Shown: positions 5,197 through 46,981 of the stretch, piece by piece
Numbering within the stretch: the stretch's first letter is position 1
How the letters are laid out: each line of letters opens with the position of its first letter
IMG/VR virus record: IMGVR_UViG_3300032086_000660
Location: 1 to 61,833 of that record
Length of the DNA stretch: 61,833 nt
From: a virus
Lineage: Duplodnaviria > Caudoviricetes
Reading direction: 5' to 3' (one strand)
The notes under the pieces: generated by a model
What the model was told of the DNA's origin: nothing
The model's input: only the letters and a program-made list of their open reading frames with translations
The model's database searches: none
Position numbers and translations under genes: made by a program

Positions 5197-8100
5197 TTAC
5201 TTTTGTTTCATTTTGTAGTAGTACCCATTGAACTGCTGATAGATAGCAATCTTCTTGTCGTGTAGCTTGTCCAGAAGCTCTTGTCTCTTCACTGGGTCTT
5301 CGATACGCTCTGCACGCTTCTCAGCCTCAGCAAGTTTCTTAACCTTGCTCTGTACTTGCTTATCAAGATTAAGCAGTCTGTTTAGTTGCTTCATCTCTGC
5401 CGTCATAGGCTCTCCACTCTTCAGTGCACCGATAGCCTTGTTCTTCTGCTTGAGAATCTCTCTTCGTGTCTCGTAGTATCGACCCGCAGCTTCTGACTCT
5501 CTTACTGTGCCCAAGAACTGTCTTGCCAGAGGAACATCGTTGAACTCAATGTCACCAGCTTTTCCTTTGTATAGCTTTTGACCAGTATCCATTGTTCTGT
5601 TGATGAACTTACCAGTACCACCCGACAAGAACGTAAACAAGTATTCAATAGTATCTGGGCTCAAATCAACCATACCCTTCTCGTAGTCGCTACCACCAGT
5701 CGCCTTGTTCAAGAACACAGCCATAGTCTTAGCCCACTCCGCAGCGTGTTTAGTTGGACGCTGTGAGTCTGGAGTGTCTGCTGAGTAGTAGAAGTCTTTC
5801 TTGTAGATTGGGCTACCGAAGAAGTTCTCATTAAGCTGTAGCTCCACGATTGGCTTCAATACTGTAGGCGTAGCACTCTTCAGAAGAGAGCCTCCCAAAT
5901 CACTACTCTTAGACAAAGAGATAGGAGAGAAAGAACCGACTATTCCATTCAGTAAGAATGAAGCAGACTCTGCTGGAGTAGAAACACCGAACGCTGTCTC
6001 AGAAAGAGCAGTACCCATGTTGAAGAACATACTCACACCATATGGCAGAGGAATCTTGAAGTAGTTTCCACGCTCGCTTCCGTACATAATGATTAGGAAA
6101 CGCTCACGCTCGTACTCTGGAATCTTGTTGTACATAGGGATGCCGTCTTCGTCTTCACCGCCCACAGCGATGTTCATCATAGTGAGTAGCGCACTGAACG
6201 CCATCATACCACCAGCAACCTTCTGAGCTTTCTTACTCTTGACAACCGAACGCAACAACCTTGTCGAACCTTGCACAGATGCATTGAAGAACAAGTATAG
6301 CGAGTTGGCTACAGCGCCAAGTTCACCCGAGCGGTTAAAGTTGATAGTGAGTTCTTTCACAAACTCTGCTGCTTGGTCTGCTGGTACGCCATTCTTTCTT
6401 GCAGCGATGTACGCACCGAAGCGGATACCGTTCTCAATAGATGTGTTTGCAACATCAACGAACTTAGCAACCTCAGAGAGCGAAGCAGTACCTTTCACAC
6501 CAACAGCTCTTGCCTTGTCTCTCAATGATGCTTCATCTGTAATCGGTTTTGTCTTCTCGATGTACTTGAGCATCTCTTTCTCAATCTCCTCAGCACTCTT
6601 CAATAAGAACCAGTCAGTCTTTGCACCCGATTTTAGGTACTCCTCGTAGAACGCTTTGGTCTCAGAGTCCATACCTTCTCTGTTTCCTTTCTCGTATTGG
6701 AACACGCCCTTGATAGCGTTAGGTACATTTCTGAGAGACTCTAAAACGAAGTCTTGACCAGAGATGTTTGACAACTCCATATCTTGTTCAGCCATCTGAT
6801 TGTACATAGCTGTTTGGATATCACGAGTGAAGTTAGCGAAGATAAACTCGGGGTTCCACGAAGTAAATACTCTTGTGAAGTGACGAGATGCTTTAGACAG
6901 TGCTTTCACCAGCATATTCGTCTTTGCTACACCACCATCGTTTAGCGTTCTTGTGATACGCTTGTCGTTGAACTTGATGTAGAATGTCTTACCCTTTACT
7001 TTCACTGGAACATAATCATTGTTACCAGCCATAGCAACACCAGCCATTCTTCTTCTCAGCTCGTACTCGTATTCTTCTCCAGTTGCTTCCTCAATGAAAA
7101 TAGATTCACCTCGTGAGGCAACACGAACACGCATATCTGGGTTTTCTTCTGTGAAGACCTCCCAAGCTTTAGCGTCTTTGTTCTGTTGAACCATCTCGAG
7201 TAGAACTTGAAGTACCTCGTTCTTTCTACCTCTTGAGATAGTACGCAAATGATTACTGATTACAGTTTCAAGCGGTGATTGAGCTTCAGAGAAACGACCA
7301 GAAACTTGTCTGTATTCCTTACCGAAGATTGCGATACCACCACCTCTCGACATATCTTGAGATGAACGAGTGTCGGTGAAGTCAAACAAATCAGATGTAG
7401 GAGTAACTGCTGTACCGACTAACGGAACGTAGTTCTCAAACATACCGAATGAATCATACTGTGCTTTGTTAATCAGTCCAAAGTCAAGCATCATCTTACG
7501 AGAAGCCTCTGTGATTTCGTAGACCATATCAGCCAGCTCATCCATTCTTGCTTTGTCCCCTTCGTACTTTTTGATGATTGCATCAGCAACCTCGTTAGTC
7601 ATACCAGAGCCAGCTTCATTTGCTGGGTCAATAGTATTCTTAACGAACTCGTTACGCTCACGAGCGTGTAGTGCGTATAGGTACTCAGAGATTTGCTCGT
7701 TTGTAACACCATACTCAATCATCTTATCCATCAAAGGCTTGAGCTTCTGCTCTTCAAACTGACGAGCATCTTCCGCAGCCTTACCGTGCATCAATGCTTC
7801 AGCTCTACGGAAGTTAGCATCGCTTCTTAGTACACGCCCTTGAGCCTTCTCGATAGATTTCTGTAGGTTCTGTAGTGGCTGGTACTTGTCCGCAAACTTG
7901 AATCTCAAGTGTTCGAATAGTCTGTATGCACCACCTTGTGTCTCAACGAAGTTTTCTACACCGTTTCGAATCAACTCTTCTTGGAACTCTTTCTTGAATA
8001 GGTCGTACTCTTGCGTTCCCTCTATAAGCTGTGCTTTACCCTTTTGAGACTTATCGTTCATTTTGTTCAGAAGAATTTTAATCTCTTCTGATACCTTGTC

Positions 8101-11100
8101 GATGTTTTTTTGGTTTTCAGCCTCCATATCAGCTCTTTCCATAGGGTCTAAAGACAGATTATCTAAAGCCTTGTTAGCTCTTTCGATAGCCTTTCTTTTA
8201 GCTTCTATTTTAGCCAGTCTTTTGAACGCATAGGCTGGAGGAGACATCCATATTTCATCTCTACTCACATCTGGGTAAAGCTCGTGAAACGCTGGGGTTC
8301 TGTTTTTTACTTTTTGAGTACCTCTTTGTCCTACGAAACGTGCTTCTGCTTCTCCAAGTTTTCCTTGATACACTTGATAGTCGCTCGCTCTTCCTCCAGT
8401 CATTTTTTCAGTGAATCTTTTCACGTTCAATGCAGCTCCTTGAGCAACGTTTCGAGCGACCTCTTTGAAATAGTTCAATGAATCAGCATTTAGGGTTTCA
8501 AGCATCCACTTAGTCCCCTTCATTGTCTTGTCCTTCTGCATAGCCTCCACAGCATACAGTAGAGATATAAAATCTTTGTTTCTTTCAGCAAAATCCTTCA
8601 TCTTGCTTCTTAGCTCTTCCAGTACCTCTGTGTTTACTTGGTCTCTGCTTTCGAGATTCGCTGTAATAACAGCTTTTCTTAAAGACGAGCTGTATGGAGC
8701 TCTACTTGTTAACCATGTAACTCCATCTGAATTTTTTACAGCGTCAACGATGTCTCCTCGAGACTCTATGAACTCTGACAAAGAAGACATATTAAAGTCG
8801 TACAAATCGTTTAGAGCCCAGTCAACATTTTCGAAATCTTCATTGGTTACAATGCGCCACAGCTCTTTAAGAGAGCCTATGAAGTCACCGTTTCTTTCTA
8901 TCTCAAGTATCTTTTCTGTCAAATTGTTTGCTGTTTTCAACTGAGCTTCCGCTGACCTTCTTGACCTTGTTCCAGAGTATCTTGCATCTCCAGATATTCT
9001 TCCAGTGTTGTACCCCTCGTCAAACTGCTCTATGTGTTGTACAGCGTGCTGTACTTCGTGATACACCGTGTTCATCAGCTCCGTGAAATCTCCTCCAAAA
9101 GTGCCTTTCTTTTTTCTTATCGGCTTTATCCCTAATTCAGTTTTCTCAAAGAAGTTATCCCAAGACACAGAAATCTCTTTTGAATAAGAATTGTGCTCAC
9201 CTTGCAGAAGAGGGTTAGAAAACTTTTCTATGATGAATGAGTATTCTTTTAGAGAAGGGTACATTCTGTATAAAGCCTTGTTCTCCAAAAAGTCTTCAAG
9301 CTTCATTTTGATTCCAACAGTCTTTGTTCTCCCTTTTACTTTTTTTGTAATCAACTCGAGCATAGGGTTCAGACTTGCATTCTCACCGTACATATCTGAC
9401 AGAATGTTAAGGGTACTGCCTTTTACGAAACCATAGTTGATTTCTGAACGCCAAAGATTGTCCATACCTCTGTACCATCCAGTTGCAAAGAAGATTGCTT
9501 CTCTACCCTTTCCAGCTTCCTCCATCTCTCTTGCGAGATTTAGATTCTCTTCAAGTCTACCACCAGCCATAGCGCCAATCTCTCCAATAATCTGTGCTTT
9601 ACCCTCTGGGGTAGAAGACAGCTTATGGTATTGGTTGAATGGGTCTGTGTCTGGAAGAGCTACCAAATCAAGAACAGCCTCTTGTGTAGACTCTTGGAAG
9701 CTACCAGCGAAGATGCTTTGAGATGTACTCTGTTTCAATCCAAAAGGCGGTACTGTGTACATACCCTTTTCTTGATTGTATCCAAATGTCAGTAAGTCTT
9801 TGAACGCTTTGTCAACTTGATATCCTCCGTCTAACTTGAAGGTCTGCTTTGACGGAAGCTTAGCGTTAAACTGCGGATGTGCAATACCGCTGTTTTGTTG
9901 GAAGCTCTCTCCCCAGTCAAGCGAAGGGTTCGTTACAAATCCGCTGTATGTGTATCCCCAGTCTCCATTGAGCGCTCCCTCTATGTATTCATCTGTTCTT
10001 GTCTCTGGTGAAGAATACTTTCTCCAGAAATCTACTTGACTGAATCCAGCCTCTGCCATTCTTTTTGATAGGCTTACAGCTACTCTTGCGTTAGGGTTGA
10101 TTCGCTCAACTCCTTTCACCTTGCCGTATCCTTTAGGTAGTAATGATTTTACGATTGCCTTTCTTAGCGGGAAACTCATCTTATCAACTACCTCAGCAAC
10201 AGCTTCTGATTTAGAGCCGTTAGCGATACCGTCAATAAACTTCTCTACAAGGTCAAGCTCCCCAGAGTTCTTGATAGGGGTAAGACTCATCAATCTTTCT
10301 TTGATTTCCGCAGCCGCTTGCTTTCTATCGTCCTTAAATGTCTCTGTAATAGCTTCAGCTAAGTAATCAGCAGCGTAGAAGTTTCCAAGCATTCCGTCTG
10401 GAGCTTGCTGCATAATCAGTACCGTAACATCTTTTCCGTTACCGATACTCTGAACCATATTTTTAATCTTGGTGACAGACTCTTGACTTACAGATGCAAA
10501 CCCAACACCATCTCTTAGATTTTCTTCTATGAATGAGTAGCCAATTCCACCCATAACGTCTTTACCGTCTACCTCACCAATACCAGTGTTGTCAGATGTA
10601 ATAACAAGGACACGACCCTCTGTTTGCTTTAATGCTTCTTGTAGGCTAAACGTAGGTGCGTCTCCAGTAATCACTTGAGCCTTTCCAGCCTCTGGGCTTA
10701 TAAAGCTTTCATCAGCTTGTGCTGCTACGCTTCCATCTTCAAAGTTCTGTTTTGTGATGTCAATCTGTGGGTATACCAGTATCTGGTCTTCACGAGCAAC
10801 ATCTTCTGTAGTAGACAACGGCTTCTGACGCAATTGCTCCACAGAATAGTAAGAACGAGTCTCAGCGTTTCTTGACTCAACCTCACCAGCGAGTCTTTGA
10901 TACAACTGATATCCGTTAGCAGAGTCGCTCTTTCTAACAACCTCGTCCCAGTAATCAAAAGCAGCGTTAGCCATATACTGGTGTCCCTTGTAATCCCACC
11001 ATCCATTCTCTTCGATGTTTTCTGTCATACCGTTTAGTATGTCTTCATCGAGGTTAGATAGGAACTCGATAAGCTCTTCAGCTTGTTCTTCGTCAAGTAT

Positions 11101-14100
11101 GTCATCGCTCGCCTCTACGATTTGCTCTGGAGACATATTGACCATATCGTTGTAGTTTCCTCCGAAACCAGACATCTCAGCCCCTTCAGCAAACCAGTCA
11201 AGGTATCTCGCCATATCTCTTGCCTTCATAAACGGCTTGAGAGGTTCTATAATCTGCTCATAAAGCTTCTGAGCCTCTTGAGTACCACCAAAGAAAGTTT
11301 GGAAGCTACCTCCAGTAGCCATCATCTCTCTGTGTTGCACCCAGTGCTGTAGTTCGTGAACAAGGTATGTTCTTACAGCTGAAGGTGTTTTTACTTGTAT
11401 CTCTATCGTGTTCTGAGAAGGACTGTACCAAGCTTCTGCTCTACCAGTTCCGTCTTCAGCTACATTGATGTCGATAACAATATCTTTTGACTCTGGGTAC
11501 ACCTCGAATAGCTCTGTTTCTATTACGTCAGACAGCTTAGCTCCTTTAATATTTGTTCCAGCTTGTAGCTCTGCTTTGATTGTAGGATACTCTATTTCGT
11601 ATCTCCACTTGCCGTCTGCACCTAAAGTCCAACCAAACGACTCTTGAAGTATTCTTTCAGTCTCTTCCTCAGACTTTACGTCTTTAATCATATCGTAGAA
11701 CTGCTTGGCTTGCTCTAACCTTCCAGAAATCTCTGGTCTTAGGTTTCCGCTTTCGCCAATAATCTGAGCCTTGTCGCCAGTCTCTTGACCTTTGTCCTTT
11801 CTCTTACGCAGTCTCTCGATGTCGTTAGGGTCGATTGGCTCGCCTTCTCTCATAGAAGCAGCGATGTCCTTCATAATCTGAACACCTTGAGTTCTTGAAG
11901 GAATAGGTACTTCAAACCCAAGAGCATCACCGATTACCTCAGCAATCTTTCTCAGAATACCTTTTTCAATCTGAATATCAAACTTGCCAGCAGCAAGCAT
12001 TGCAATGAACTCAGTAACACCTTCCTCAGAACGGTTTCCAGCTTCGTATCCAGCAATAAATCTTTGGATAGCAGAACCTACTGCCACACCCTCAATGCCA
12101 GACTGCTTAACCATCTTAGCAATCTCACCGAATAGAGCATCAAAAGACTTGTTTCCAAGCACCTCTCCGAATGCACCGTGTGTTGCTTCGTGGTATCCAG
12201 TAGTAGAAACCATAGCTGGAGCAAGGAAGTGAATCTCGTTTCCCTTCATAAAGTAACCACGAGTAAGTTTATCCAGTCCAGTTGCATCTTTAAATGCTTG
12301 TGCGCTCGTATGCACGAACACCTTTGCATCTGGTCTTACTGCTTTGATAGCCTTAACAGCGTTTTCAATAGACTGAAGACCTTTGATGGCAGCGTCTTTA
12401 GTTGTTTTAAAACCTTCAAATACTTGCTCACCAATTGTTTCAAAGTGATTGATGAGGTCAGCCAAAAAGCCTTCTTTGCCATCGTATTCAATAGTAGGCT
12501 GTAGCTTACCCTTCTCCATTTCAAATGGAACGTATAGCTCTTTACCACCAGCATCAGAAACCGCTTGTTCAACCTCAGCTTGATTCTCTGCATAGAAGCT
12601 TTCCTCTTCCATTGTAAGCGATTCTCCTTGCTTAATCTTTTGTGCAATAGAGATTGCCTCAGCAGACATATTTGAAGCGCTCTGAACAGATTGTAGACCC
12701 TTGTATTTTTCTTCGATAGCAAGCTTCTCTTGGAAGTCTGCTTTAATCTCTGCTCCAAGTGCTGACTTCGCAGCTCCTTCTGGCATAGAGTTCCACTGGT
12801 CTACCTTGCTTTGGAATGTATCAGCAATCTGCATCAACTTAGCGTGGTCTTCTGGAGACTCTTGTCTGATTCTTTCGAAGAACTCAGCGTTCTGCTTGTT
12901 ACGCATACCCTCTTTTGCGAGAGCTTTAGCAAGCTGAGCGCCTATAATTCCTTTTGTTTTCTTGTCTGCTGCGTTTTGATATTCCTCAGACAACTGCTTA
13001 ATCACAGCTCTTGAACGCAACTTGTCCATACCCAAACCAAGCTTACCAGCAATGTGTAGGTTCTGAACCTCGAATGGTGCACGAACCGCTGTTGTTGCAG
13101 TCTGCATACCGCCAGTCATAAGAACAGCAGAGTCAACAGCCTCCATTAACGGCTCTTTTAGTCTTTCCCAAGTAGCTCGTTTGCCTTGTGCTTCAAGCTC
13201 GTATTTAGTTTGAACGAGAGCTGTAGCAGCTTCGGCTGCCGCCTCCTCTGAAACAGATGTTCCATAAGAGTATGCAGTTGCCTTGATAAACTCACCGAAT
13301 GTCTTTTTAGCGGCTTCGCCAGAAATACCCTTTAGTGCTGGGGTAATCATTCTGTTAAAGATGTGCGCAGAAACGCTTTCACCAAGACCTTCTGCAAGAC
13401 CGTTTACCGTTGCAAGGGTAACACGCTGGGCTGGGCTCATTTCAGAGAACCAATCTTGACCCATTACAGACATATAGTAAGAAGAACCGCTTAAAGCCCC
13501 CATACCTACTGTCGATGTAGTCATTGCTGCGAGCGACTTGCTGCCAGAAATAGTTAAACCAGCTGCTCTTGAAGCGCCTTGAAAGTAACCAGCACCAACC
13601 ATATATGGTGCAGACTTAGCAAGAAGAGTTAGCGACTCGTTTACAAGTACAAGAGGGTTCTCATTTATGGTTTGGTTACGACCAGTTAGAGCTTCGCCTA
13701 AATCTACATCGCCCATAACTCGTTGACCTTCCTTACTTCTATAGTATTCGAGACCGTCACGAACCTTTTTTAGTGCGTGTGAAACATCAAATAAGTCGTC
13801 ATCTCCAGAGTATTGAAGTCTCTTGTCTATTCTGTCCCCAAGACCATCGAGCCCTTTCCCAAGCTCCTCTGTAGCCATAACAGTTGTTTCGAGAGCACCA
13901 GCTATAAGTGCTAATCCAGAAACAGCCATTTCGGCAAACGAAACAGCCGCAACATTTAGGCTACTATCTAATATGTTTTTGTTGTAGATTTTTCCATCAC
14001 CAGTGAGGTCAATAGACACATTACCCCAGTGCATAGTGTTTTCAACATCCTTCAAAAACTCCTCGTCATTGCGAAGGTTTTCTGGAAGGTTTTGCATCAA

Positions 14101-14868
14101 GTTGGTTTTGAAAATATCGTTGTATTCTCTTCCGTACTTCTCGTAGTATTTAGCACGGATTTTTTCTTTGCGTGCTTCTGGGTCATCAGTATCCAGTTGC
14201 TCTGGCATACCTCTACGCTTCTTCTCTTCTTGAACTGCCTCGTATGCAGCAGCTGCATTTTTAGAAGGTCTGTATCTCGATGGTTTAGATATCGATAAGA
14301 GAACACTCTTGTCTTTTACCTCATTCTTTAACTTTGTATGTTTCCAAGACTCAAAGTCATCAAGCACACCCAGTTCTTCAGCGATATCTTCGTCAGTCGT
14401 AGTCAGTGCCTCGTCATATGCCTTAACCTCTTTCTGATAGTCTTCATCATTATCAATGAGGTGGTCAAACAAGTCGTTAGGACTGTTTATCTCTAAGTCG
14501 GGAGCTTTGATGTTTTTATAGTCGTTAAACGAGCTATAGTTGATGAGGTCAATCTTCTCCTTTGGAAACTTCTCTGTAATAGAAGAATCCAAGCGTGAAG
14601 CTTCTGCCAGCAATTCTGATTCTGTAAGTTCTGGTGTTCTTTTTTTTTTACGTTCTGCGAGAATAACGTCAATGTCGTTATCAGAGAAGTTACGCATCTT
14701 CAAGATGTCTGCAATCTCTCTATCAGACTTGTTGCTCTTTACAGAAGCCTCGAGAATCTTGTCGTAGTCAGTTTTACTTATCTTACGAGATGTGTCGTAA
14801 GTAGGTTCTTCTTTCTTTACAATTTTTGCTTCCGTTTGATAAACGTACTTAGAATCGTTACCAGCCAT
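5197..14868 (-). CDS. Giant polyvalent virion/ejected protein (zincin HExxH modules, two LPD23-like modules, C-terminal LPD38-like region)
   Basis: HEATH, HELQH and HEVQH motifs; GWTLGADGKWRYEI and GWYRGMDNLWRSEI; C-terminal NPEF..NF.RD, TINFNRSG, LYLFFNASVQG and KIPLPYG. Confidence 0.8.
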   Translation of the reverse strand: MAGNDSKYVYQTEAKIVKKEEPTYDTSRKISKTDYDKILEASVKSNKSDREIADILKMRNFSDNDIDVILAERKKKRTPELTESELLAEASRLDSSITEKFPKEKIDLINYSSFNDYKNIKAPDLEINSPNDLFDHLIDNDEDYQKEVKAYDEALTTTDEDIAEELGVLDDFESWKHTKLKNEVKDKSVLLSISKPSRYRPSKNAAAAYEAVQEEKKRRGMPEQLDTDDPEARKEKIRAKYYEKYGREYNDIFKTNLMQNLPENLRNDEEFLKDVENTMHWGNVSIDLTGDGKIYNKNILDSSLNVAAVSFAEMAVSGLALIAGALETTVMATEELGKGLDGLGDRIDKRLQYSGDDDLFDVSHALKKVRDGLEYYRSKEGQRVMGDVDLGEALTGRNQTINENPLVLVNESLTLLAKSAPYMVGAGYFQGASRAAGLTISGSKSLAAMTTSTVGMGALSGSSYYMSVMGQDWFSEMSPAQRVTLATVNGLAEGLGESVSAHIFNRMITPALKGISGEAAKKTFGEFIKATAYSYGTSVSEEAAAEAATALVQTKYELEAQGKRATWERLKEPLMEAVDSAVLMTGGMQTATTAVRAPFEVQNLHIAGKLGLGMDKLRSRAVIKQLSEEYQNAADKKTKGIIGAQLAKALAKEGMRNKQNAEFFERIRQESPEDHAKLMQIADTFQSKVDQWNSMPEGAAKSALGAEIKADFQEKLAIEEKYKGLQSVQSASNMSAEAISIAQKIKQGESLTMEEESFYAENQAEVEQAVSDAGGKELYVPFEMEKGKLQPTIEYDGKEGFLADLINHFETIGEQVFEGFKTTKDAAIKGLQSIENAVKAIKAVRPDAKVFVHTSAQAFKDATGLDKLTRGYFMKGNEIHFLAPAMVSTTGYHEATHGAFGEVLGNKSFDALFGEIAKMVKQSGIEGVAVGSAIQRFIAGYEAGNRSEEGVTEFIAMLAAGKFDIQIEKGILRKIAEVIGDALGFEVPIPSRTQGVQIMKDIAASMREGEPIDPNDIERLRKRKDKGQETGDKAQIIGESGNLRPEISGRLEQAKQFYDMIKDVKSEEETERILQESFGWTLGADGKWRYEIEYPTIKAELQAGTNIKGAKLSDVIETELFEVYPESKDIVIDINVAEDGTGRAEAWYSPSQNTIEIQVKTPSAVRTYLVHELQHWVQHREMMATGGSFQTFFGGTQEAQKLYEQIIEPLKPFMKARDMARYLDWFAEGAEMSGFGGNYNDMVNMSPEQIVEASDDILDEEQAEELIEFLSNLDEDILNGMTENIEENGWWDYKGHQYMANAAFDYWDEVVRKSDSANGYQLYQRLAGEVESRNAETRSYYSVEQLRQKPLSTTEDVAREDQILVYPQIDITKQNFEDGSVAAQADESFISPEAGKAQVITGDAPTFSLQEALKQTEGRVLVITSDNTGIGEVDGKDVMGGIGYSFIEENLRDGVGFASVSQESVTKIKNMVQSIGNGKDVTVLIMQQAPDGMLGNFYAADYLAEAITETFKDDRKQAAAEIKERLMSLTPIKNSGELDLVEKFIDGIANGSKSEAVAEVVDKMSFPLRKAIVKSLLPKGYGKVKGVERINPNARVAVSLSKRMAEAGFSQVDFWRKYSSPETRTDEYIEGALNGDWGYTYSGFVTNPSLDWGESFQQNSGIAHPQFNAKLPSKQTFKLDGGYQVDKAFKDLLTFGYNQEKGMYTVPPFGLKQSTSQSIFAGSFQESTQEAVLDLVALPDTDPFNQYHKLSSTPEGKAQIIGEIGAMAGGRLEENLNLAREMEEAGKGREAIFFATGWYRGMDNLWRSEINYGFVKGSTLNILSDMYGENASLNPMLELITKKVKGRTKTVGIKMKLEDFLENKALYRMYPSLKEYSFIIEKFSNPLLQGEHNSYSKEISVSWDNFFEKTELGIKPIRKKKGTFGGDFTELMNTVYHEVQHAVQHIEQFDEGYNTGRISGDARYSGTRSRRSAEAQLKTANNLTEKILEIERNGDFIGSLKELWRIVTNEDFENVDWALNDLYDFNMSSLSEFIESRGDIVDAVKNSDGVTWLTSRAPYSSSLRKAVITANLESRDQVNTEVLEELRSKMKDFAERNKDFISLLYAVEAMQKDKTMKGTKWMLETLNADSLNYFKEVARNVAQGAALNVKRFTEKMTGGRASDYQVYQGKLGEAEARFVGQRGTQKVKNRTPAFHELYPDVSRDEIWMSPPAYAFKRLAKIEAKRKAIERANKALDNLSLDPMERADMEAENQKNIDKVSEEIKILLNKMNDKSQKGKAQLIEGTQEYDLFKKEFQEELIRNGVENFVETQGGAYRLFEHLRFKFADKYQPLQNLQKSIEKAQGRVLRSDANFRRAEALMHGKAAEDARQFEEQKLKPLMDKMIEYGVTNEQISEYLYALHARERNEFVKNTIDPANEAGSGMTNEVADAIIKKYEGDKARMDELADMVYEITEASRKMMLDFGLINKAQYDSFGMFENYVPLVGTAVTPTSDLFDFTDTRSSQDMSRGGGIAIFGKEYRQVSGRFSEAQSPLETVISNHLRTISRGRKNEVLQVLLEMVQQNKDAKAWEVFTEENPDMRVRVASRGESIFIEEATGEEYEYELRRRMAGVAMAGNNDYVPVKVKGKTFYIKFNDKRITRTLNDGGVAKTNMLVKALSKASRHFTRVFTSWNPEFIFANFTRDIQTAMYNQMAEQDMELSNISGQDFVLESLRNVPNAIKGVFQYEKGNREGMDSETKAFYEEYLKSGAKTDWFLLKSAEEIEKEMLKYIEKTKPITDEASLRDKARAVGVKGTASLSEVAKFVDVANTSIENGIRFGAYIAARKNGVPADQAAEFVKELTINFNRSGELGAVANSLYLFFNASVQGSTRLLRSVVKSKKAQKVAGGMMAFSALLTMMNIAVGGEDEDGIPMYNKIPEYERERFLIIMYGSERGNYFKIPLPYGVSMFFNMGTALSETAFGVSTPAESASFLLNGIVGSFSPISLSKSSDLGGSLLKSATPTVLKPIVELQLNENFFGSPIYKKDFYYSADTPDSQRPTKHAAEWAKTMAVFLNKATGGSDYEKGMVDLSPDTIEYLFTFLSGGTGKFINRTMDTGQKLYKGKAGDIEFNDVPLARQFLGTVRESEAAGRYYETRREILKQKNKAIGALKSGEPMTAEMKQLNRLLNLDKQVQSKVKKLAEAEKRAERIEDPVKRQELLDKLHDKKIAIYQQFNGYYYKMKQK

Positions 14869-17261: not shown

Positions 17262-20200
17262 TTAGTTGACTCTATCGTTATGCAGTCGTGACCTATCAAA
17301 ATGTGTAGACAGTGCGTGTACCTCGAAAGGAGTTGTATCAGAGCTCTCTATTTTAATCTTCAAGAATACATCTCTCATAGGGTCTCCATCTACTCTTGCA
17401 GCGTGCTCAACAAACACATTGTCTCCAGCAGAGATGTTACTGATATTTGTAGTACACTGAATAGTTTTTCTTCCGTCAATACCGCTAATCTCCATACCAG
17501 TTCCAGTCAATGTTGAACCAGATGCTGTTTTAAGAACATCACCCACAACAAATGGAATTGTGTTAATCGGTGTAGTGAATGTTACCTTGTCTCCAGATAC
17601 AGAGTCAACCTTTCCTAAGTATATCTGATGCTCTGTAGATTTAAGCGTATCACGAGGTATCATAGCGTATCTATGACCTTCACGAACATCAAAGTCAGAA
17701 GTGCCTATAGTTGTACTCTGCTCTGAGTTGCTTACAGTTGAAGACCAAGTACCGTTTCCTTCTACAGCGAGTGCTTCATAAACCTTAATCATAGATGGGT
17801 TTCTGTTGCTCACTACCTCAATCATAGAATCGTACTGAGTATTGTAGAAGTTGTTTCTTGTCGTGTTTACGTTATGCTCCCAAACAAGTCTGTTGTCTTC
17901 GTTATCAAAGAAGCTGTACAAGTCGTTGTTGATGTTCACATAAGAGGTAGGCTTGAAGCTGTACTTGCTTCCCCATACACCTTCCTTGTGCTTGTATGCT
18001 ACGGTAAACCCTTCTTCTTTTTCTGTTGCTGCCCCAACGGTAATGCTATCACCTTGACAAGTGGTAGATGGAAGGGTAATCTGTCCAGTAGACAAGTTTA
18101 CTTGACCTATTGCGCTGAAGCTGTAAGAAGAGTCAGTAACAAGAACATCAATGGTAGAGGTACTGCCTAAGTAAGATAAGTCAACAACAACACCTTGCGC
18201 ATTGAATGCTGAGTCTACAAAAACAACTCCGTTTCCTACATCGTCCCAATCACCACAGAATGTGTTCCACACGTTGCCCCATACGTTCCATAGAACCGTG
18301 TTCTGTACATATGTGATTCCTTGAATGGTAAACTCTGCGTTTGCATCAACTGGGATGTTATTTGTATCAGAGCCAATGGTTAGCTGCGAGTTGTATACTG
18401 GTTCTACAGTTACAAGGTACTCATCGTTGTCTGGGTCGAAACCACCTACTACACGAATCTTCTCGGTAATTGAAAGCAAGCTCTTGAACTTGTCCTCAAA
18501 GAAGCTGTTCATTCCCTTGTCGCTAATAAGCGTGATACCATCAGTAGACAGTCTTACAATCTTTCCAGCCTTAGCGTCTGCATAGTACACAACTCCAAAT
18601 CGCTCTACAACTGACTCTGGGTTACCAGATGTTCCGAAGTCTCCAGCGTAGTAGCTTGGCTGAGACAGTACATTTCTTGATACAGTTACACCAGCTTGAC
18701 CGTTTGCGTACTCGATTACATTTCTGTTTACTGGTATCTGAGATGCCTTGCTGTCTTGCAGACAAGTGAGTGAATCAGCTCTGTTAATCAGAGAGTCGAT
18801 ACCACCATACTTGATGTCTACGTCTGACCAGTTGGCAAGAGACAGATTAAAGCTACTTAGGTTGAGCTTATCCGAGTCTATAACGAATGGGTCAGAGTAT
18901 GTAATAGAAGCTCTTCTGCGAAGTCTTTTTGCTTCTGGAATATGTGCGAATGGTCTACCAGTAGAACCAAACTTAGAGTCAAAGAAATCACTAACAGAAT
19001 AGTCTTCTGCGTACTTGACCATAGATGCAATGATGTTTGCCTTCACAAAATCGGTGTCATCAATCTGCTCTTCTTTCGTGAACATTACACGAGGTCTAAA
19101 GTAAGCATCGCCTACATTTAAGTCGATAACAGCGTCTGGGTTGCTTACCGTGAATGCGTATGTAGCAAGAGGTAAAGGCGTTGCGCTATTGTCGTCTGCG
19201 TAGAAATAGTATGTGCTTCCGTCTTTGTATACGTTGCGAACAGTAAGTGTTCCAGCGCTTGTAGTAAGAACATCGCCTTTAAACACTCGTACAGCTGTCT
19301 GTGCAAATGCAATTCCGTTAGTATTAGAGTCAATCTGAGCGTTCAGAGAGGTAAAGTTTCTCATATCAGAGTGAGTACCGCTATTACAGTCATACACCTT
19401 ACCAAGCTCATAGTATACTCGGTCTTCTGTTTTCTTGTCCTTGCGGAATACCTCTACGACACATCTTTTAAACCAGCCGCTTGAATCGTTGGCTACGGCA
19501 GATGTGTTAAATGATGGAGCAGTCGGATTGTTCTTGATTACCAAGAAATCACCAGTGGTTGCCTCGATAGCATCCTTGCTTCTTCTGCTAAGAATAGGGT
19601 TGGTATCAAGGTCGTTTACAAGTGTTCTGTGGTCTACCACCTCAAACTCTTTCTTTGTTCTTTGACCTCCATCGTATTCTACGATTCTTAGTCTGTCTCC
19701 TTTCTCGAATTGATACTTGATGTCCGCACCAGTTGCTTTTGTGTAGCTGTCTGGTTTATGGAACAAGCTGTTTAGAGAGAGGTATATAGTGTCTTGTATA
19801 GAGAATCCACTTGTTTCTCCAGTAGATTTAGGTAGGAAAGCACCCTTTACTGAGTACATCAGCTTGGTTTCGGTTTCCCCTTTTCCTACATATACTGGCA
19901 TCCAAGTTCTCGCCCAGCTTGGTGCGCTGTGCTTTAGTCTCATAACGATAGATGCTCTACCGTGTAAGTCGTCTTCTTGGGTTCTGTCGTTTAAGTGTTT
20001 TACATAGACATCACCAGCCTCTTGTACGCCACCAGCACGACCTCTGTTATCGAAATAAACCACACCCATCTTGTGTGCAGAGCCAGACTTAAATGTCTTA
20101 CCACTGTCTAAGTATTTAGCGGCAAATGAACCCCCGTTGTTTATGGTTAAATCTACTTCTTGGAATCCGCCATACGGCTGATAAGAAGAGCCAGTTAAAT

Positions 20201-21887
20201 CAACAACAGCTGTTTCCGTCTCAATTATGTCAACCTTTTTGCTTCCAGTAGCAAAGAAGTCAACAAGACGAAGCGTGGCTTCATTAGGCTCTACCTTGAT
20301 TCTAACTTGCTGAGTACCAACATTGTATGAGTTGATTCTAAACTTAACCTCACCCTCAAATCTACCAGACTGAGTAGTAAAAGGAGTAGAACCGCTTGTG
20401 TTCAATATGCTGTAGCTCTCTTCCCCTTCTTTTGGAGAGAACACAGCAGTCTTGTATGTGTCGTGAAACTTATCTACAATCAGCGCTCTAACATCAGAAA
20501 TGGTGCTACCAGCTGGTACAGATATAGCTTCTTTAAATATGATTCCGCTCAGATGACCGTGTATACCTCCTTTTGCAACAGATATGTTGAACTCTTTGGT
20601 CTCTCTGTTGGTGTCATCGTTATCGTTGTAGTATTTGACCCAAGTATCTAAAGGAACATTGAGGAGACCGTTCTTATCAATCTTTACGTCTTTTTGCTCG
20701 TAAGAAACATTTATATGAACTGTTGAAGCATCATTAAAAACTGACGGAAGGTCTGATAGGCTAAGAGTAAAGCCTCTACCGTTAAGCTCATTGTCGTAAA
20801 CAGTGAGTGAGATGTCATATACATCTGGTATGTTGCCGTAGTTGGCAAGCATTTCGACATCAGTGTCAACATTATCGTATCCTTCTATGTAGTTTCCGTA
20901 CATCAATCTATTTCCTACGATAGCTTGAGCCTTAGCTACTTGAGGTACGTTGTCGTATGTCTTATTCAGTTCATTGTTTGCAAGAGGTGAGCCAAGAGTA
21001 TCGTTTGTAAACTCGATTGTTCTTGTGCCACCAGAGGTGCTGTTTGACACCTTCTTTGCTTGATAGAAAGTTCCGTTACCCTCACGAGCATACAGAATAA
21101 TCTCTTTCACATCTGCAACAGAGTTCTTTACGAATACGTTGATTTGATTGTAAAAGTCTTTCTGTTCCTCGCTGTTCAGTCCATCTCTAAGCTGGCTTAC
21201 AGCAACTGTAAGAGAGCTGTACGGTGACAGTGCACTGTGCTCACCATCCTCATATACATACTTGTAAGCAAACTGAAACACACTTCTTTTGATGTTGTTC
21301 TGAATAAGTGTAGGGTTGTTTACAATGTTGTATGTAGGTGCGTGCTTTGGTGGCTGTTTAGCCGTTGTCAAGCAAAGTAGTTTTTCTGCATCTGTACCAG
21401 AAGTAAGAGCTGCGGGGTATCCACCTCTAATCAGTCTCTGTACATTCAGCTTCATCGGAGGGTTGTCGTTGTCTGTCCAGTAGAACAGAGTGTCTTCGTC
21501 CTCGTTGATAATTACATCACACTTAGCGTAGCTGTACTTCTTAAAGTTTAGAACACTATCCTCGTATAGCTTCTGATACTTGTTAGTGGTTAGGTCTATA
21601 CGATAGATACCGTGATTCCCAGCGCTGTTCCATACGAGAAACAAAATCTCTTTGTTGTGCTCATTTGCAATAGAACCGATTACACGATTATCTCCAGAAG
21701 GCACATTGTCCGATGAGCTTCTCGGGCTTACAGACTCATTACCTTTAACATTCTTAACTACCCCAGCTGTTCCTTCTGCATCGTTAGATATGCGAACATT
21801 GAGGTTGTCTGTCATCTCAACAGACTTTACGAGTTTTTGGTCAGTATCCGAGTTTAGATACTGAGGTATGAGTTTGTCAATAGCCAT
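17262..21887 (-). CDS. Tail stabilisation/nozzle (crAss-like muzzle) protein
   Basis: N-terminal LNSD.D...NVRIS, YWTDNDNPPMKLN, NRLMYGNY and GDFGTSGNPES motifs; beta-propeller character. Confidence 0.75.
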   Translation of the reverse strand: MAIDKLIPQYLNSDTDQKLVKSVEMTDNLNVRISNDAEGTAGVVKNVKGNESVSPRSSSDNVPSGDNRVIGSIANEHNKEILFLVWNSAGNHGIYRIDLTTNKYQKLYEDSVLNFKKYSYAKCDVIINEDEDTLFYWTDNDNPPMKLNVQRLIRGGYPAALTSGTDAEKLLCLTTAKQPPKHAPTYNIVNNPTLIQNNIKRSVFQFAYKYVYEDGEHSALSPYSSLTVAVSQLRDGLNSEEQKDFYNQINVFVKNSVADVKEIILYAREGNGTFYQAKKVSNSTSGGTRTIEFTNDTLGSPLANNELNKTYDNVPQVAKAQAIVGNRLMYGNYIEGYDNVDTDVEMLANYGNIPDVYDISLTVYDNELNGRGFTLSLSDLPSVFNDASTVHINVSYEQKDVKIDKNGLLNVPLDTWVKYYNDNDDTNRETKEFNISVAKGGIHGHLSGIIFKEAISVPAGSTISDVRALIVDKFHDTYKTAVFSPKEGEESYSILNTSGSTPFTTQSGRFEGEVKFRINSYNVGTQQVRIKVEPNEATLRLVDFFATGSKKVDIIETETAVVDLTGSSYQPYGGFQEVDLTINNGGSFAAKYLDSGKTFKSGSAHKMGVVYFDNRGRAGGVQEAGDVYVKHLNDRTQEDDLHGRASIVMRLKHSAPSWARTWMPVYVGKGETETKLMYSVKGAFLPKSTGETSGFSIQDTIYLSLNSLFHKPDSYTKATGADIKYQFEKGDRLRIVEYDGGQRTKKEFEVVDHRTLVNDLDTNPILSRRSKDAIEATTGDFLVIKNNPTAPSFNTSAVANDSSGWFKRCVVEVFRKDKKTEDRVYYELGKVYDCNSGTHSDMRNFTSLNAQIDSNTNGIAFAQTAVRVFKGDVLTTSAGTLTVRNVYKDGSTYYFYADDNSATPLPLATYAFTVSNPDAVIDLNVGDAYFRPRVMFTKEEQIDDTDFVKANIIASMVKYAEDYSVSDFFDSKFGSTGRPFAHIPEAKRLRRRASITYSDPFVIDSDKLNLSSFNLSLANWSDVDIKYGGIDSLINRADSLTCLQDSKASQIPVNRNVIEYANGQAGVTVSRNVLSQPSYYAGDFGTSGNPESVVERFGVVYYADAKAGKIVRLSTDGITLISDKGMNSFFEDKFKSLLSITEKIRVVGGFDPDNDEYLVTVEPVYNSQLTIGSDTNNIPVDANAEFTIQGITYVQNTVLWNVWGNVWNTFCGDWDDVGNGVVFVDSAFNAQGVVVDLSYLGSTSTIDVLVTDSSYSFSAIGQVNLSTGQITLPSTTCQGDSITVGAATEKEEGFTVAYKHKEGVWGSKYSFKPTSYVNINNDLYSFFDNEDNRLVWEHNVNTTRNNFYNTQYDSMIEVVSNRNPSMIKVYEALAVEGNGTWSSTVSNSEQSTTIGTSDFDVREGHRYAMIPRDTLKSTEHQIYLGKVDSVSGDKVTFTTPINTIPFVVGDVLKTASGSTLTGTGMEISGIDGRKTIQCTTNISNISAGDNVFVEHAARVDGDPMRDVFLKIKIESSDTTPFEVHALSTHFDRSRLHNDRVN

Positions 21888-29067: not shown

Positions 29068-29975
29068 TAGTAAGCTATTCTTGACCCGCCTACTATACTT
29101 GTGTCGTATAAACCAGCTGAGTCGTGTTCGTTAGTATCAAATGTCCATTCAGTAAGTAAACTGCTTGAATGAGTCTGTGAGCTGTCTGCAATATTACCAC
29201 TATTATAAAGCGTAGTAATCTCAGAAGATGTAAGCACGTCTGTAAATACTTTAAACTCGTCTAAGTCTACATTAGCATTACCAGCAGAAGCTGTAGTGTG
29301 TATGTTCTCACAAAACCTAAACCAGTCTGCACGAGTTGATGTTCTTGTGCCGCTATTCGCAGCCGCTTGAGTAGTCAGTTCAGAGCCATTCCAGTACAGC
29401 TTAAAGGCATTAGAAGCATTAGTCTGAGAGGCGTCATAAGTAAGAGTAAGCATACAGAAGTTGTCTGAGTTTACATTACCACGCTGCCCAGTTGTCCATC
29501 CAGTAGAACTGTTTGTAATGCCAGTTGCAGAGCTGTTGTCGTGTAGTCCGTATTGTCTGTCAAAGTTTACAGAGTTTGTTCTAACACGGCAAAGAAGTCT
29601 GTTGGAACTTGCAATGTACTGCATAAATATACGGTTGTTACCATTGGCTTGTGTGCTACCAAAGTTCCATAGCGTTTCGTTGTTTTTGGTGCTGCTTTTA
29701 ATCCTAACCCAAAAGTTAAATGATAAGTCTTGAGTAGTGTTTATGTCAAAAGGAGTAGCACTTATTTTACCGCCAGTGATGTAGTCATTAGTACCATCGT
29801 TAGAGTAATAGTGACTATTAGTGTATGATGCGTATCCGTAAAACTCTGATATAGCATCTGGTTCAGTAAATCCAGCCGTGTCAGACATAGAGCCAAGAGA
29901 TACGTTGGATAACGATACCCCTTGCTCATTAGCTATCTCCGACATTTTAATCTGTCCACTGGTCTGTAAAGCCAT
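29067..29975 (-). CDS. LamG/concanavalin-A-like lectin domain virion protein
   Basis: DGTNDYI, SFNFWV, LTYD, LDEFKVF..VLTSSEITTLYN; N-terminal MALQTSGQI typical of fibre-tip adhesins. Confidence 0.75.
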   Translation of the reverse strand: MALQTSGQIKMSEIANEQGVSLSNVSLGSMSDTAGFTEPDAISEFYGYASYTNSHYYSNDGTNDYITGGKISATPFDINTTQDLSFNFWVRIKSSTKNNETLWNFGSTQANGNNRIFMQYIASSNRLLCRVRTNSVNFDRQYGLHDNSSATGITNSSTGWTTGQRGNVNSDNFCMLTLTYDASQTNASNAFKLYWNGSELTTQAAANSGTRTSTRADWFRFCENIHTTASAGNANVDLDEFKVFTDVLTSSEITTLYNSGNIADSSQTHSSSLLTEWTFDTNEHDSAGLYDTSIVGGSRIAY

Positions 29976-32900
29976 TATAGTCTGTTTTCTAAGTCAATGA
30001 TACGCTCTTCTAACTGGGCAATAACATCTTGTTGCTCTTTGTTAGCCTCGATAAGAAGACCTACAAGTTTAGCGTAGTCTACACGCTTGGCTGTTGTACC
30101 ATCGAGCAACTCGCCTTCGCTTACTACCTCTGGTACTACTTCTTCAACCTCTTGTGCAATCAAACCGATATCACGCTGTCCTTTGCGCTTTCCGTGATTC
30201 CAAGTATACTCGACACCACGAAGCTGAGAAACCTTCTCAGATGCGCTTTCAATAGTCTGTATGTCGGTCTTTAGTCTGCGGTCAGAGTTTGTAACTGTAG
30301 AGTAAGCTACAACGTCACCGTCTACATCAAGAGTACCAGAATTAGACAGTCTCATATCTAACACACCGTCTAAGTACCAAGCAAAGTTAGTGGTGTTGAA
30401 TGCGAGGAAGTCATTACTATCTCTACCTATGTGCGTAATACCATCACGAAGGTCTGTTTCGATAGAGAATGTACCGCTTGTTAAATCAAGACCAGTACCA
30501 GCAGAATACTGACTGTTTGTAGAGTCGATAGTAATCGTACCGCCAGACTTGTTAACGCTTGTTGCACCACCGCCTACGAGTGTTATAGTTCCAGTAGAGT
30601 GGTCGCCAGTAATACCTACACTTGTTATAGTGTTGTCGTTTGGTGGTATAGTCCACCCACCATCACCGTCAAGATAGTATGTAGCATCGTAGCTATCACC
30701 AGCGGGAACAAGACCCGCAGCATCTCCAGTAAATGAAGAATACTGAGTATCTGTGTAGTTGTCTGCGTGAATATTTTCAGTCTGACTAACAGTCCAGTCA
30801 ATGATAGCGTTACCGCTTGGGATAGTAGGTTTGTTTTTAATAAAGGCGTCACCAGATGTAGCATTCCAATCAGACTGTACGTTAGCTTCTGCATCACTTG
30901 GTGCGTGGGCAGCTTGACTATGTGTATAAGCAGTATCCCATTGACCTACTTTAGCGTTTGTAATAGTGTTTGAGCCACCGCCAAGAGTTAGAACCGAATC
31001 ATCGGTTAGCTTCATTTTTTGATTGGCATTTGTACCGTCATTATCGTGCTTCCACCATTGCCAAGAAGCTGTGCCCGTTGCACTGGTATGAAGCTCAAAC
31101 CTTGTTTGATGGGTAGAACTTCCAGTTTCGTCTTGTCTGTGTATTAAATAAGCAGTGCTGTCATCCGTTCTTACACCCCAGTATTGAGATGTATCTCTAC
31201 CAACTTTAAACTGGGCGGTGCTTGTGGGTTGCGCTCCACCAGAAACTCTTACAACAAGACCAGTATCAGCTACAGCGTGTACAATATCTAAATTACCGCT
31301 TATTGTATCTCCAGAAGCAGAAACAAAGTCTGTTGAAGCGGCAGATGCTGCTGTACCAAGAGTAGGCAAATTGGTGATGTCAGCATCATAATCAATTTGA
31401 TTTAATGTAATTACTTGACCACTTATAGTAAGGTAATCGTATGAACCAGCAAGTGTAACGTCAGTAGAATTATCAGTACCTACTGGGTCGAAGTCTGTAC
31501 CGCTTACTGGTATAGAAGTATCCCCAGCCAAAGCTGTTGTAGAGGTCGTTCCTAATTGCAGAGCGTCAGTAATACCGTAGCCAGAAATAGTTGTAGGCGT
31601 ACTTGTAAGGTCTGAAAATGCTACAGAAGTTAGATATGTAGATGTATCTACACTTACAACACCAGAAGCATTTGTTTTGAGTAAACCAGCTCCGTAATTA
31701 GACAAGGTTAGTGGTTTGGTAATGTTAACCAATTCTGCACTACCGTCTATATTCAAATATGTTGTAAGACCACCAGAGCCATCATCACTACGCAAAGAAA
31801 TATCACCATCGTCTTGAAGGTTTTGAATAACTAAGTTGCCAGTATTGTTTGCAATTCTGCTATATGTACCATCGTGGTAGATTTTTAAATCACTACCACT
31901 ACCAAACCTTGCTTCTACGTTGTCATAGAACAAGAAGTTTTTAGAAAGTTTAGTGGTAGTATCAGAGCCATCAAGTCTAATGTACTCTGTCATTCCACCG
32001 CTACCATCGTCAGTTCTTAAAATAATATCACTATCGTTAGCGTCATTTTGAATGTAAATGTGACCAGTGCTATTTTGAAGAACACTATCTGTTGTGTTGT
32101 GATATATTTGGAAATCTGTGTTTCCTCCAAATGTAGCCTTTACATTGTCTAAAAACAGTGCGGATTTAGAGAACTTATTGTATCCAATACTGCCATCTAT
32201 AGCAAGATACTCTACTACGCCTCCACTACCATTGTCACTTCTAAATATTACATCTTTATCATCCGATGTATTTTGTATAAACAAATGACCAGTCTCATTC
32301 TGAATAACAGTATCTGTACCGTTGTGATACATTTGCAAGTCCGAGCTTGAACCTAAATCAACTCTTACGTTATCGTTGAATTTGATATTACCAGTAACAG
32401 TGTCACCACTAACAGCAACAAAATCTGTTGAAGCTGATGTAGCTGCCGTACCCAATCCTAAGTTAGTACGAGCAGCAGATGCACTTGATGCACCAGTACC
32501 ACCGTTGGCTATAGACAAGTCTGTACCAGACCAATCTGAGTTACTGATAGCCAGTGTACCACCAAGAGTGAGGTTGCCCGTTGAGGTTACTGTACCAGTT
32601 AGGGTGAGTCCATTTACAGTACCAGTACCACCTACAGATGTTACCGTACCACTACCTCCACTTGCTACTGTAGTAAAAGACAGTGTGCCATTACCATCTG
32701 TTGTAAGCACTTGTCCGTTTGTACCGTCAGTAACGTTAAGTTCGGAAATACCTACAGAGTTAGCAGCAATAGAAGTTAGGTATGTATTGTTAGAGTCAAA
32801 CTTGGTTGTACCTCCAGCAACAATTCTTACTCTATTTGTATCAAACTGAATGTTTGTATCAGTATCGCCACTATGAATGATGTCATCAAGAACATACATA

Positions 32901-45902: not shown

Positions 45903-46196
45903 CTACTTTGAGAATCGCTCTGCGAATCCCCCAGAGTAGTCTTTGTCTTCTTCAATCCCTCCAGTTTCCTTGAGTTCTTTGACCATTTGTTCCAGTCTTT
46001 GGTACTCGATAAGCAGTTCTTTTGCATCTGTTGCCGTTTGTTTGATACTTTGAAGCTCTGCCTTTCTCTGCGAACCAGACAGCTCTGAGTCTACTGGCTT
46101 GCGGATTTCATCAATCATATTATTGATTGCCACCTCCATAGAAGACAACAATCTTGTCGATGCTTCAATCGTTGTAAATTTACTCTTTCTTGGCAT
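45903..46196 (-). CDS. Terminase small subunit candidate
   Basis: Helical, upstream of terL, ends GFAERFSK. Confidence 0.5.
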   Translation of the reverse strand: MPRKSKFTTIEASTRLLSSMEVAINNMIDEIRKPVDSELSGSQRKAELQSIKQTATDAKELLIEYQRLEQMVKELKETGGIEEDKDYSGGFAERFSK

Positions 46197-46749: not shown

Positions 46750-46750
46750 A

Positions 46751-46981
46751 CTATTCAAATTTAAGGTCGTACTCCAGAATACAAGGCATATCGTCAATAG
46801 CCTTCCATAACATCGTTCCTTGCTCATTCTCAATGTAAATGAGATACCGTTTTTTACTGTACTTGTGTAAATGCGCCTCGTCTTCAACAATAGCGACTAC
46901 TTTTCCAGCTCCAGCTCGCATACCCACATAGTATGCCATAGCGTCTTTCGGGTCACGCCCGATAACAATTTTTCTAATCAT
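46751..46981 (-). CDS. hypothetical protein
   Basis: MIRKIVIG.DPKDAMAYYVG...LWK...MP...EYDL. Confidence 0.65.
   Translation of the reverse strand: MIRKIVIGRDPKDAMAYYVGMRAGAGKVVAIVEDEAHLHKYSKKRYLIYIENEQGTMLWKAIDDMPCILEYDLKFE

Follow-up and report, generated by a model that had tools for sequence, protein, structure and literature searches.

The window analysed here is the complete virus record IMGVR_UViG_3300032086_000660, a linear phage genome of 61,833 bases with a CheckV completeness of 100%. The gene in question encodes P0001, a protein of 3223 amino acids (aa) that is built from five successive modules: an N module, a zincin module M1, a module M2, a second zincin module M3 and a C module. 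A short peptide, [GD]KAQ[ILVM], was found four times in P0001, at aa 1032, 1395, 1756 and 2277. All four copies of this tag flank the modules in which an LPD23 domain is joined to a HExxH zincin motif (LPD23-zincin modules), sites 1 and 2 lying around M1 and sites 3 and 4 around M3. Judged from sequence comparison, we give an even chance to the reading that the tag, G/D-K-A-Q, is a processing site cut by the embedded LPD23-zincin. Positions of all features are collected in Table 1.

The tag and the modules of P0001

The original prediction had placed a KAQ-hydrophobic motif at module boundaries of this protein, with KAQ at 11764-72, 10675-83, 9592-9600 and 8029-37, and had counted three HExxH motifs. 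These coordinates proved exact, and the HExxH motifs were located at aa 893, 1171 and 1937. The motif was also found to open modules, as had been claimed: a Pfam LPD23 match would begin 2 residues past the Q at sites 1 and 3, and the phrog_10691 alignment of the LPD38-bearing C-terminal region begins at aa 2276, which is site 4. Site 2 opens M2, a domain without a family match. Of the motif itself the KAQ part stood and the hydrophobic part did not. A hidden Markov model built from site 3 located 134 LPD23 starts in 105 of 108 proteins, and the 91 unique start sites gave a consensus of R/K/L at P3, F/Y/A/H at P2 and Q/S at P1, followed by [FIL][IA]-G-E. Since this last element is conserved at LPD23 starts, IIGE at sites 1 and 3 was assigned as the first element of LPD23; at site 2, 'VIT' aligns with 'VVS' or 'VVD' of distant M2 relatives that lack GKAQ. 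The part common to the four sites is only the four residues that precede the first strand of the next domain.

From composition, 0.03 copies of the tag are expected in P0001, and at least three copies were obtained in 0 of 20000 shuffles. When every pattern of the form [GD]xyz[ILVM] was allowed for, four copies were reached in 1 of 3000 shuffles, the flank classes having been picked post hoc. Plain 4-mers present three times number four in P0001 (LAEA, DLFD, GKAQ and KVKG), against an average of 1.74 in shuffles. The repeat count by itself is moderately strong evidence only; position and conservation, not copy number, are the decisive evidence for the tag. Elsewhere in the 61.8-kb genome no [GD]KAQ was found in six frames. 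Synonymous codon differences separate the four copies, and the DNA shared between them is at most 12 nucleotides (nt), which places selection on the peptide G/D-K-A-Q and not on the DNA. A weaker tag-like sequence, DKSQ, lies five residues ahead of site 4 (DKSQ-K-GKAQ; aa 2272-2276, positions 8041-8055, minus strand) and is also present in P0002, a relative with 96% identity.

The signature of the LPD23-zincin module consists of a Q-x-I-G-E start, GW..DG.WR.E, HE.QH..Q..E and GE.E.R, with a TEDV..DQ tail that is common, not invariant. M1 has every invariant column of a 31-row alignment, with the motifs at aa 1036, 1079, 1171 and 1354, and its parts follow each other as IIGE start, GWTLGADGKWRYE, HELQHWVQHRE, TEDVAREDQ tail and a linker of 22 aa. 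In M3 the motifs stand at aa 1760, 1797, 1937 and 2164, and the tail is degenerate. A HExxH was found behind LPD23 in 330 of 341 modules, in an extended HExQHxxQxxE-like form in 316 of these, and the residues H157, E158, H161 and E167 (fragment numbering) are invariant in the 31-row alignment. M1 and M3 carry the same tag, although they share only about 29% identity and belong to different clades of a tree of 124 modules. On this tree the tag class changes 34 times against 66.8 times for shuffled labels, though kinship alone also clusters labels. A profile-free search with M1 returned 4273 cluster representatives at E <= 0.001 and listed a few short proteins (e.g. 337, 360 and 278 aa), which may be genes or fragments; when proteins of 286-912 aa were searched by word index, no stand-alone M3 was found at E <= 1e-5.

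A first AlphaFold model (aa 1000-1800, 17 rows) had a mean predicted local distance difference test score (pLDDT) of 50.5 with all three sites below 50, and a fold search with it gave long-helix noise (best Z 5.1). The second model (aa 1015-1410) was built with 30 diverse full-length LPD23 proteins, after MAFFT had been seen to bring the LPD23 starts of 45 of 45 proteins into register; its mean pLDDT was 69.5 and its predicted template modelling score 0.64. Within M1 the pLDDT was 88-97 over aa ~1035-1185 and 86-92 over aa ~1325-1364, the fold ending near the TEDV tail. At site 1, aa 1021-1032 (fragment 7-18) were below 50 and a confident fold set in from Q1035 with a block average of 88, Q-I-I being modelled as the beta strand that opens it. 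Site 2 lies past the TEDVAREDQ tail, inside fragment residues 359-396 with a pLDDT of 30-37. The tags are at the edge of (site 1) or inside (site 2) predicted flexible linkers, which is where the motifs had been proposed to lie.

For M2, Pfam gave nothing below E = 0.29, the ESM Atlas held no usable match and the PDB provided no lead. Its distant relatives, at 27-29% identity, are giant open reading frames (ORFs) of 2425-3131 aa on seven IMG/VR contigs (L006-L012), each with one HExxH and without LPD23 or the tag. In the C module LPD38 was matched at aa 2912-3104 with 151.4 bits, and P0001 has two LPD23 matches, 55.3 bits (Pfam, cut-offs 27). A very large multi-domain phage protein with LPD domains above the Pfam cut-off, P0001 is a member of the polyvalent proteins described by Iyer et al. 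2017; NCBIfam had no family for it. A strongly hydrophobic segment was observed in the N module (aa 306-332; 13873-13953, minus strand), and another in the C module just ahead of LPD38 (aa 2884-2902; 6163-6219, minus strand). Both may serve to insert into a membrane as components of an ejection apparatus. Hypothetical cuts after the Q of each tag would yield products of 114, 41, 39, 60 and 107 kDa.

Tags in relatives and in other LPD23 proteins

A search with aa 1020-2290 returned 107 proteins, 16 of which (P0002-P0017) share N, M2, M3 or C with P0001. The motif of the original prediction was found again in these homologues: 15 of the 16 have the tag at their joints, with 3-6 copies of [GD][KR]xQ where about 0.7 are expected, and M3 occurs in 15 of these 15. 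The exception, P0016, has neither LPD23 nor tag. Copies of [GD][KR]xQ away from the joints were limited to three, DKSQ in P0001 and P0002 and GKTQ at aa 733 in P0017. When 65 joint instances were tabulated by joint class, the Q was invariant and the K nearly invariant. At the start of the C module the pairwise identity was 0.1-0.5 for the ten upstream positions and 0.9-1.0 for the tag, and for the ten positions downstream of the N module end it was 0.1-0.2. Tag 2 is kept as GK[AQE]Q in 11 of 11 carriers of M2 (P0001 and 10 relatives). Tag 3, GKAQ followed by IIG, is identical in 16 of 16 tabulated family members (P0001 and 15 relatives), and tag 4 was found in 16 of 16 of them.

Gains and losses of modules in homologues, which according to the original prediction should fall exactly at KAQ, were in phase with the tag (P0002, P0007 and P0008). 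With P0001 divided at the tags, BLAST alignments of the segments start at segment residue 1-4 and reach the segment end. P0007 lacks M1 and is identical to P0001 for 89% in N, 69% in M2, 42% in M3 and 95% in C; for P0008 the values are 96% in N, 70% in M2, 40% in M3 and 99% in C. After '...KDKGQExG-DKAQ' there follows either M1, or an extra module of 188 aa (P0002, P0003 and P0013), or a diverged acidic spacer of 23-31 residues with a second GKAQ at its end. In P0002 the extra module has DKAQ immediately ahead of it and GKSQ immediately behind it. The first residues of M1 remain after the first tag in P0008 and P0013, and the end of its linker remains ahead of the second tag in P0007-P0011. 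P0012, P0014, P0015 and P0017 have the same two-tag spacer layout, in-frame remnants of M1 being recognisable in P0007-P0011 and P0013. Judged from the remnants that flank the spacer, M1 was lost in P0007-P0011 and P0013, with both tags retained.

Thirteen giant relatives that share M2 or C lack both the tag and LPD23, namely P0016, seven IMG/VR loci and five named phages. Since tag-less relatives also have the first HExxH (aa 893), this motif is not the correlate of the tag. The original prediction had suggested cleavage by the protein's own metallopeptidase, with three HExxH motifs to choose from; the candidates are now narrowed to the two that are linked to LPD23, at aa 1171 and 1937, and aa 893 is set aside. 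Close DNA relatives were absent from 50,697 phage records searched with the gene by megablast. A scan of viral contigs with the M2 and M3 protein sequence gave no relative, and an alignment-based scan gave seven distant loci only. The last ~900 aa of the C module have homologues, at 20.6-34% identity, in the C-terminal part of giant proteins from 340 phage records, among them those of Vibrio, Stx-converting, Ruegeria 45A6, Ralstonia and Bcep22-like phages.

Repeated tags also exist in other LPD23 proteins, each with a sequence of its own, and stand at LPD23 starts, behind zincin tails and ahead of unrelated modules. Five copies of ILFQ were counted in P0024, four each of LTQRQ in P0018 and of VQFS in P0020, and three each of DIRYS in P0022, of KGKA(Q) in P0035 and five relatives, and of GRAQ in P0038. 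In a first set of proteins, which is redundant and includes the P0001 family, 139 further copies of the tripeptide ahead of LPD23 were counted elsewhere in the protein, where 69.1 were expected; with tripeptides borrowed from other proteins the figure was 63.7 (standard deviation 10.1, maximum 112). An independent set was formed by the 140 of 145 newly listed proteins that had usable LPD23 starts. Here recurrence was 194 against 88.1 from composition, and 87.4 for foreign tripeptides (standard deviation 11.2, maximum 121, 300 draws), examples being ES-YNQ and D-x-RYS with seven copies each and SI-LSQ and DI-RFS with six each. Five of the seven LPD23 starts of P0109 are [MVI]LSQ, and all three of P0113 are [ST]YNQ. 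Behind the zincin, an identical tripeptide was found within 70 residues past the tail in 13 of 61 non-redundant modules, against 0.84 expected (maximum 5 in 1000 trials). The private-tag layout, in which each lineage has its own tag, is general and recurs in hundreds of LPD23-zincin proteins.

The proteins P0109, P0110 and P0111 are 5812-7242 aa long and contain 4-7 LPD23-zincin modules each; their private tags, ILSQ followed by FAG and [ST]Y[NKQ]Q followed by IIG, are repeated up to about ten times. Gp60 of Pseudomonas phage H66 (L015:2467-13830) carries its module after a Pro/Glu-rich linker, with VQYS followed by FAGR; another HExxH lies about 200 aa further on. A mass-spectrometry note in its record describes gp60 as a virion protein of this cultured phage, which makes it a possible bench model. 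The name 'PLxRFG' given to H66 gp60 refers to a C-terminal domain that is unrelated to the tag.

An embedded protease and the competing explanations

A peptide that is kept independently of its flanks, lies in linkers, brackets a peptidase-like module with a strongly constrained catalytic signature, recurs within the chain and varies between lineages is what a polyprotein that contains its own protease looks like. In the mechanism proposed, the LPD23-zincin (M3 in all members, plus M1 in P0001) would recognise G/D-K-A-Q and cut the chain. By cutting on both sides of itself the peptidase would be released and would set the N, M2 and C modules apart, either inside the capsid or in the host once the protein has been ejected. 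We infer all four elements of this mechanism: the activity of the zincin, its reading of the tag, the bond cut and the timing. The original prediction had offered two alternatives, cleavage and a junction for domain shuffling; both fit the comparative data, which prove neither. A wider proposal, put forward tentatively and with a chance that falls short of even, is that the LPD23-zincin is a polyprotein protease that excises itself, and that every lineage of phage or plasmid has a junction code of its own with which the specificity of the enzyme co-evolves. Such codes would be GKAQ in P0001 and ILFQ, DIRYS, YNQ, LSQ or RKQ elsewhere.

Several points weigh against cleavage by the embedded zincin. 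Cleavage is only a prediction, for P0001 as for all LPD23-zincin proteins. At the N module end Q is followed by A, N, G, E, T, D, K, Q or I in different relatives, and zincins usually select a hydrophobic P1' residue, which makes a variable P1' at the tag unusual. The residues past Q at sites 1-3 are the first strand of the next fold, where access may be limited. Zincin families around aa 1140-1185 remained below the Pfam cut-offs (PF18818 MPTase-PolyVal, 13.2 against 27.5 bits), and DUF6782 reached 15.2 bits on P0001 against a cut-off of 27. Foldseek of the second model against the PDB gave a best E of 0.4 and no significant peptidase match. No exact tag follows the tail in 48 of the 61 modules, several of which have a near match, and H66 gp60 has one LPD23-zincin module and no repeat. 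The 15 tag-bearing relatives form one clade and are not 15 independent events, which weakens both the conservation of joints among relatives and the argument from tag-less relatives. Finally, the N4 vRNAP and ArdC proteins carry a metallopeptidase (MPTase) and are delivered uncut (Iyer et al. 2017, PMC5512222).

VIA-align of the second model returned weak core-spanning rows, all of them to zincins: PprI (Z 4.8, root-mean-square deviation (rmsd) 3.4, 92 aligned), VgrG2b (Z 4.5, rmsd 4.4, 119 aligned), lethal factor (Z 3.8, rmsd 4.4, 106 aligned) and PPEP-2 (Z 3.7, rmsd 4.9, 107 aligned). The best E in a PDB sequence search with M1 was 0.037, to an unrelated domain of unknown function. A complex prediction of the M1 core with a 40-aa peptide of site 4 scored 0.00 against a mark of 0.32 and counts neither way.

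It is unlikely, in our judgement, that the tag is a seam kept solely for the exchange of modules, by swap, insertion or deletion in frame, in a protein that works uncut. Exchange at the tags is seen in the jumps in identity to P0001 in P0007 and P0008, in the 188-aa insertion at the tag in P0002 and in the wholly different sequences past '...G-DKAQ' among relatives, and polyvalent proteins have been described as highly mosaic (Iyer et al. 2017, PMC5512222). However, any linker would do for this purpose, yet K and Q are near invariant amid freely varying linkers, tags are retained around remnants with no module between them, and the link of the tag to the presence of the LPD23-zincin would be left unexplained. 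A signal for recombination at the DNA level was rejected, the at most 12 nt shared by the four copies, with synonymous differences, being too short for homologous recombination. Module shuffling at the tags is itself real. Since a 12-nt tag with synonymous differences cannot drive recombination, shuffling was taken to be a consequence of the layout, and it may be an evolutionary by-product of it.

The tag could also be an uncleaved structural or docking element, either a strand cap or a peptide bound by capsid, portal or chaperone during packaging or ejection. This would suit the modelling of Q-I-I as the strand that opens a confident fold, the conservation of [FIL][IA]GE after LPD23 starts over 91 unique sites, and a virion protein, which is what the gene position of P0001 and the proteomic records of homologues fit. 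We regard it as improbable all the same: the tag at the N module end precedes a variable acidic spacer and no fold, distant relatives of M2 keep the strand but not the tag, a specific docking site would be expected to be longer than a tetrapeptide, and lineage-private tags would require a co-varying partner, of which none was identified. Cleavage of the tags by another protease, a host enzyme or an unrecognised maturation protease of the phage, seems very improbable. No other frame of the genome contains [GD]KAQ, which holds for the capsid genes too, and scans of 20 other ORFs (Pfam 10, PHROGs 20, overlapping sets), most of which gave no match of any kind, revealed no separate protease family. 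Tags that are lineage-specific and recur within the protein suit a protease in the same chain, and relatives that lack LPD23 lack the tag as well. In favour of another protease are an invariant Gln at P1 and a variable P1', which are closer to the sites of Cys and Ser proteases than to those of zincins, and the assignment of the zincin from motifs, without a significant family or fold match.

Self-processing of polyvalent proteins into functional units by zincin-like MPTases has been predicted earlier, in analogy to the polyproteins of RNA viruses and with the differing peptidase types noted (Iyer et al. 2017, PMC5512222). No cleavage site or junction motif was found to be named in that paper, and 'linker' and 'LPD23' each occur 0 times in its main text; its supplements may treat LPD23, and a search of the literature found no such motif described for polyvalent proteins. 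P0001 resembles the proteins described there in its giant multi-module build, its place in a virion gene block, LPD23/LPD38 and HExxH modules, to which it adds a defined tag, the bracketing of the LPD23-zincin and lineage-specific variation.

By function, the closest systems would be viral polyproteins and MARTX toxins, and by the evolution of seams VENN and DPxGL. Polyproteins of eukaryotic RNA viruses have an embedded protease and a repeated site, with Gln at P1 for picornavirus 3C and the coronavirus main protease. P0001 resembles them in the short peptide at every joint, the putative in-chain protease between its own sites and the invariant Gln, but it is a virion protein of a double-stranded DNA phage, its module is of the zincin type and not chymotrypsin-like, and its cleavage is predicted only. 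In MARTX toxins an internal cysteine protease, activated by a small molecule of the host, cuts the linkers between effectors after delivery. They are likewise multi-module chains with a built-in protease (predicted in P0001) and with sites in disordered linkers, but differ in the protease class, the host activator and their nature as bacterial toxins, and no sequence relation exists. The junction motifs of polymorphic toxins, VENN of CdiA and DPxGL of Rhs, occur once per protein, ahead of the C-terminal toxin. Like the tag they are short conserved peptides that bound swappable modules, with exchange at the motif; unlike them, the tag of P0001 is repeated and brackets peptidase modules. VENN, DP.GL and [QE]LYN are all absent from P0001. 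Prohead maturation proteases of the T4 gp21 and phiKZ gp175 types trim head proteins, and in contrast to such substrates [GD]KAQ is limited, in six frames, to the four sites of P0001.

Genome context and significance

The late block of the phage lies on the minus strand and contains the terminase, portal and tail fibre genes and several virion protein genes, with the P0001 gene last (Table 1). This structural block is similar to that of 933W/Bcep22-type podoviruses, with a portal of phrog_6547, a terminase of phrog_6681 and a giant last gene, which is homologous to VT2-Sakai orf71 and Bcep22 gp75. Bcep22 gp75 and JC1 gp69 ('DarB-like'), VT2-Sakai orf71 and gene 22 of Vibrio phage K249 share about 900 aa of the C module and the same gene position with P0001, but are without LPD23 and GKAQ. 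JC1 gp69 was detected in virions by mass spectrometry (PMC9144972). Gene position is what suggests a place in the virion for P0001 itself, the proteomic records being those of the homologues JC1 gp69 and H66 gp60.

Two other genes of the window are mentioned here. A 236-aa ORF beside the terminase (46180-46890, minus strand) matched PHROG families of the GroES co-chaperonin (E = 8e-21). A second very large virion gene, of 1541 aa (17262-21887, minus strand), matched 'virion structural protein' PHROGs and is without the GKAQ tag.

Table 1. Positions in the window of P0001, its modules, tags and HExxH motifs, and of three genes of the late block.
Feature	Position	Strand	Location or basis
P0001, polyvalent virion-type protein, 3223 aa	5197..14868	(-)	ORF list and translation; closes structural block
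N module, aa 1-1031	11776..14868	(-)	hydrophobic segment and HExxH no. 1; no Pfam family; kept in relatives
HExxH no. 1, aa 893	12178-12192	(-)	N module
Tag 1, D-K-A-Q, aa 1032-1035	11764..11775	(-)	N module end / M1 N-flank
M1, LPD23-zincin module 1, aa 1036-1394	10687..11763	(-)	Pfam, alignment, AlphaFold
HExxH of M1, HELQHWVQHRE, aa 1171	11344-11358	(-)	motif
Tag 2, G-K-A-Q, aa 1395-1398	10675..10686	(-)	M1 C-flank / M2 start
M2, aa 1399-1755	9604..10674	(-)	between tags 2 and 3; without family assignment
Tag 3, G-K-A-Q, aa 1756-1759	9592..9603	(-)	M2 end / M3 N-flank
M3, LPD23-zincin module 2, aa 1760-2276	8041..9591	(-)	HEVQHAVQHIE, GEAEAR; degenerate tail
HExxH of M3, HEVQHAVQHIE, aa 1937	9046-9060	(-)	motif
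Tag 4, G-K-A-Q, aa 2277-2280	8029..8040	(-)	M3 C-flank / C module start
C module, aa 2281-3223	5200..8028	(-)	hydrophobic segment; LPD38 aa 2912-3104
Tail fibre	29975-34015	(-)	late block
Portal	41073-43511	(-)	late block, phrog_6547
Large terminase	43566-45695	(-)	late block

Self-cutting of polyvalent proteins has been predicted since 2017 without a named site. Candidate sites can now be given, after aa 1035, 1398, 1759 and 2280 of P0001, and a candidate enzyme is named in the LPD23-linked HExQHxxQxxE module. The rule, a tag that brackets the zincin and recurs at other joints, is checkable in any member of the family. If it holds, the module boundaries of giant phage proteins could be parsed and the mature products that enter the host predicted, and the LPD23-zincins may be a family of proteases with differing short recognition sites. 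If the co-evolving private code is true, thousands of polyvalent proteins would be timed-release effector cassettes, and together they would form a large natural set of mutually orthogonal pairs of protease and site.

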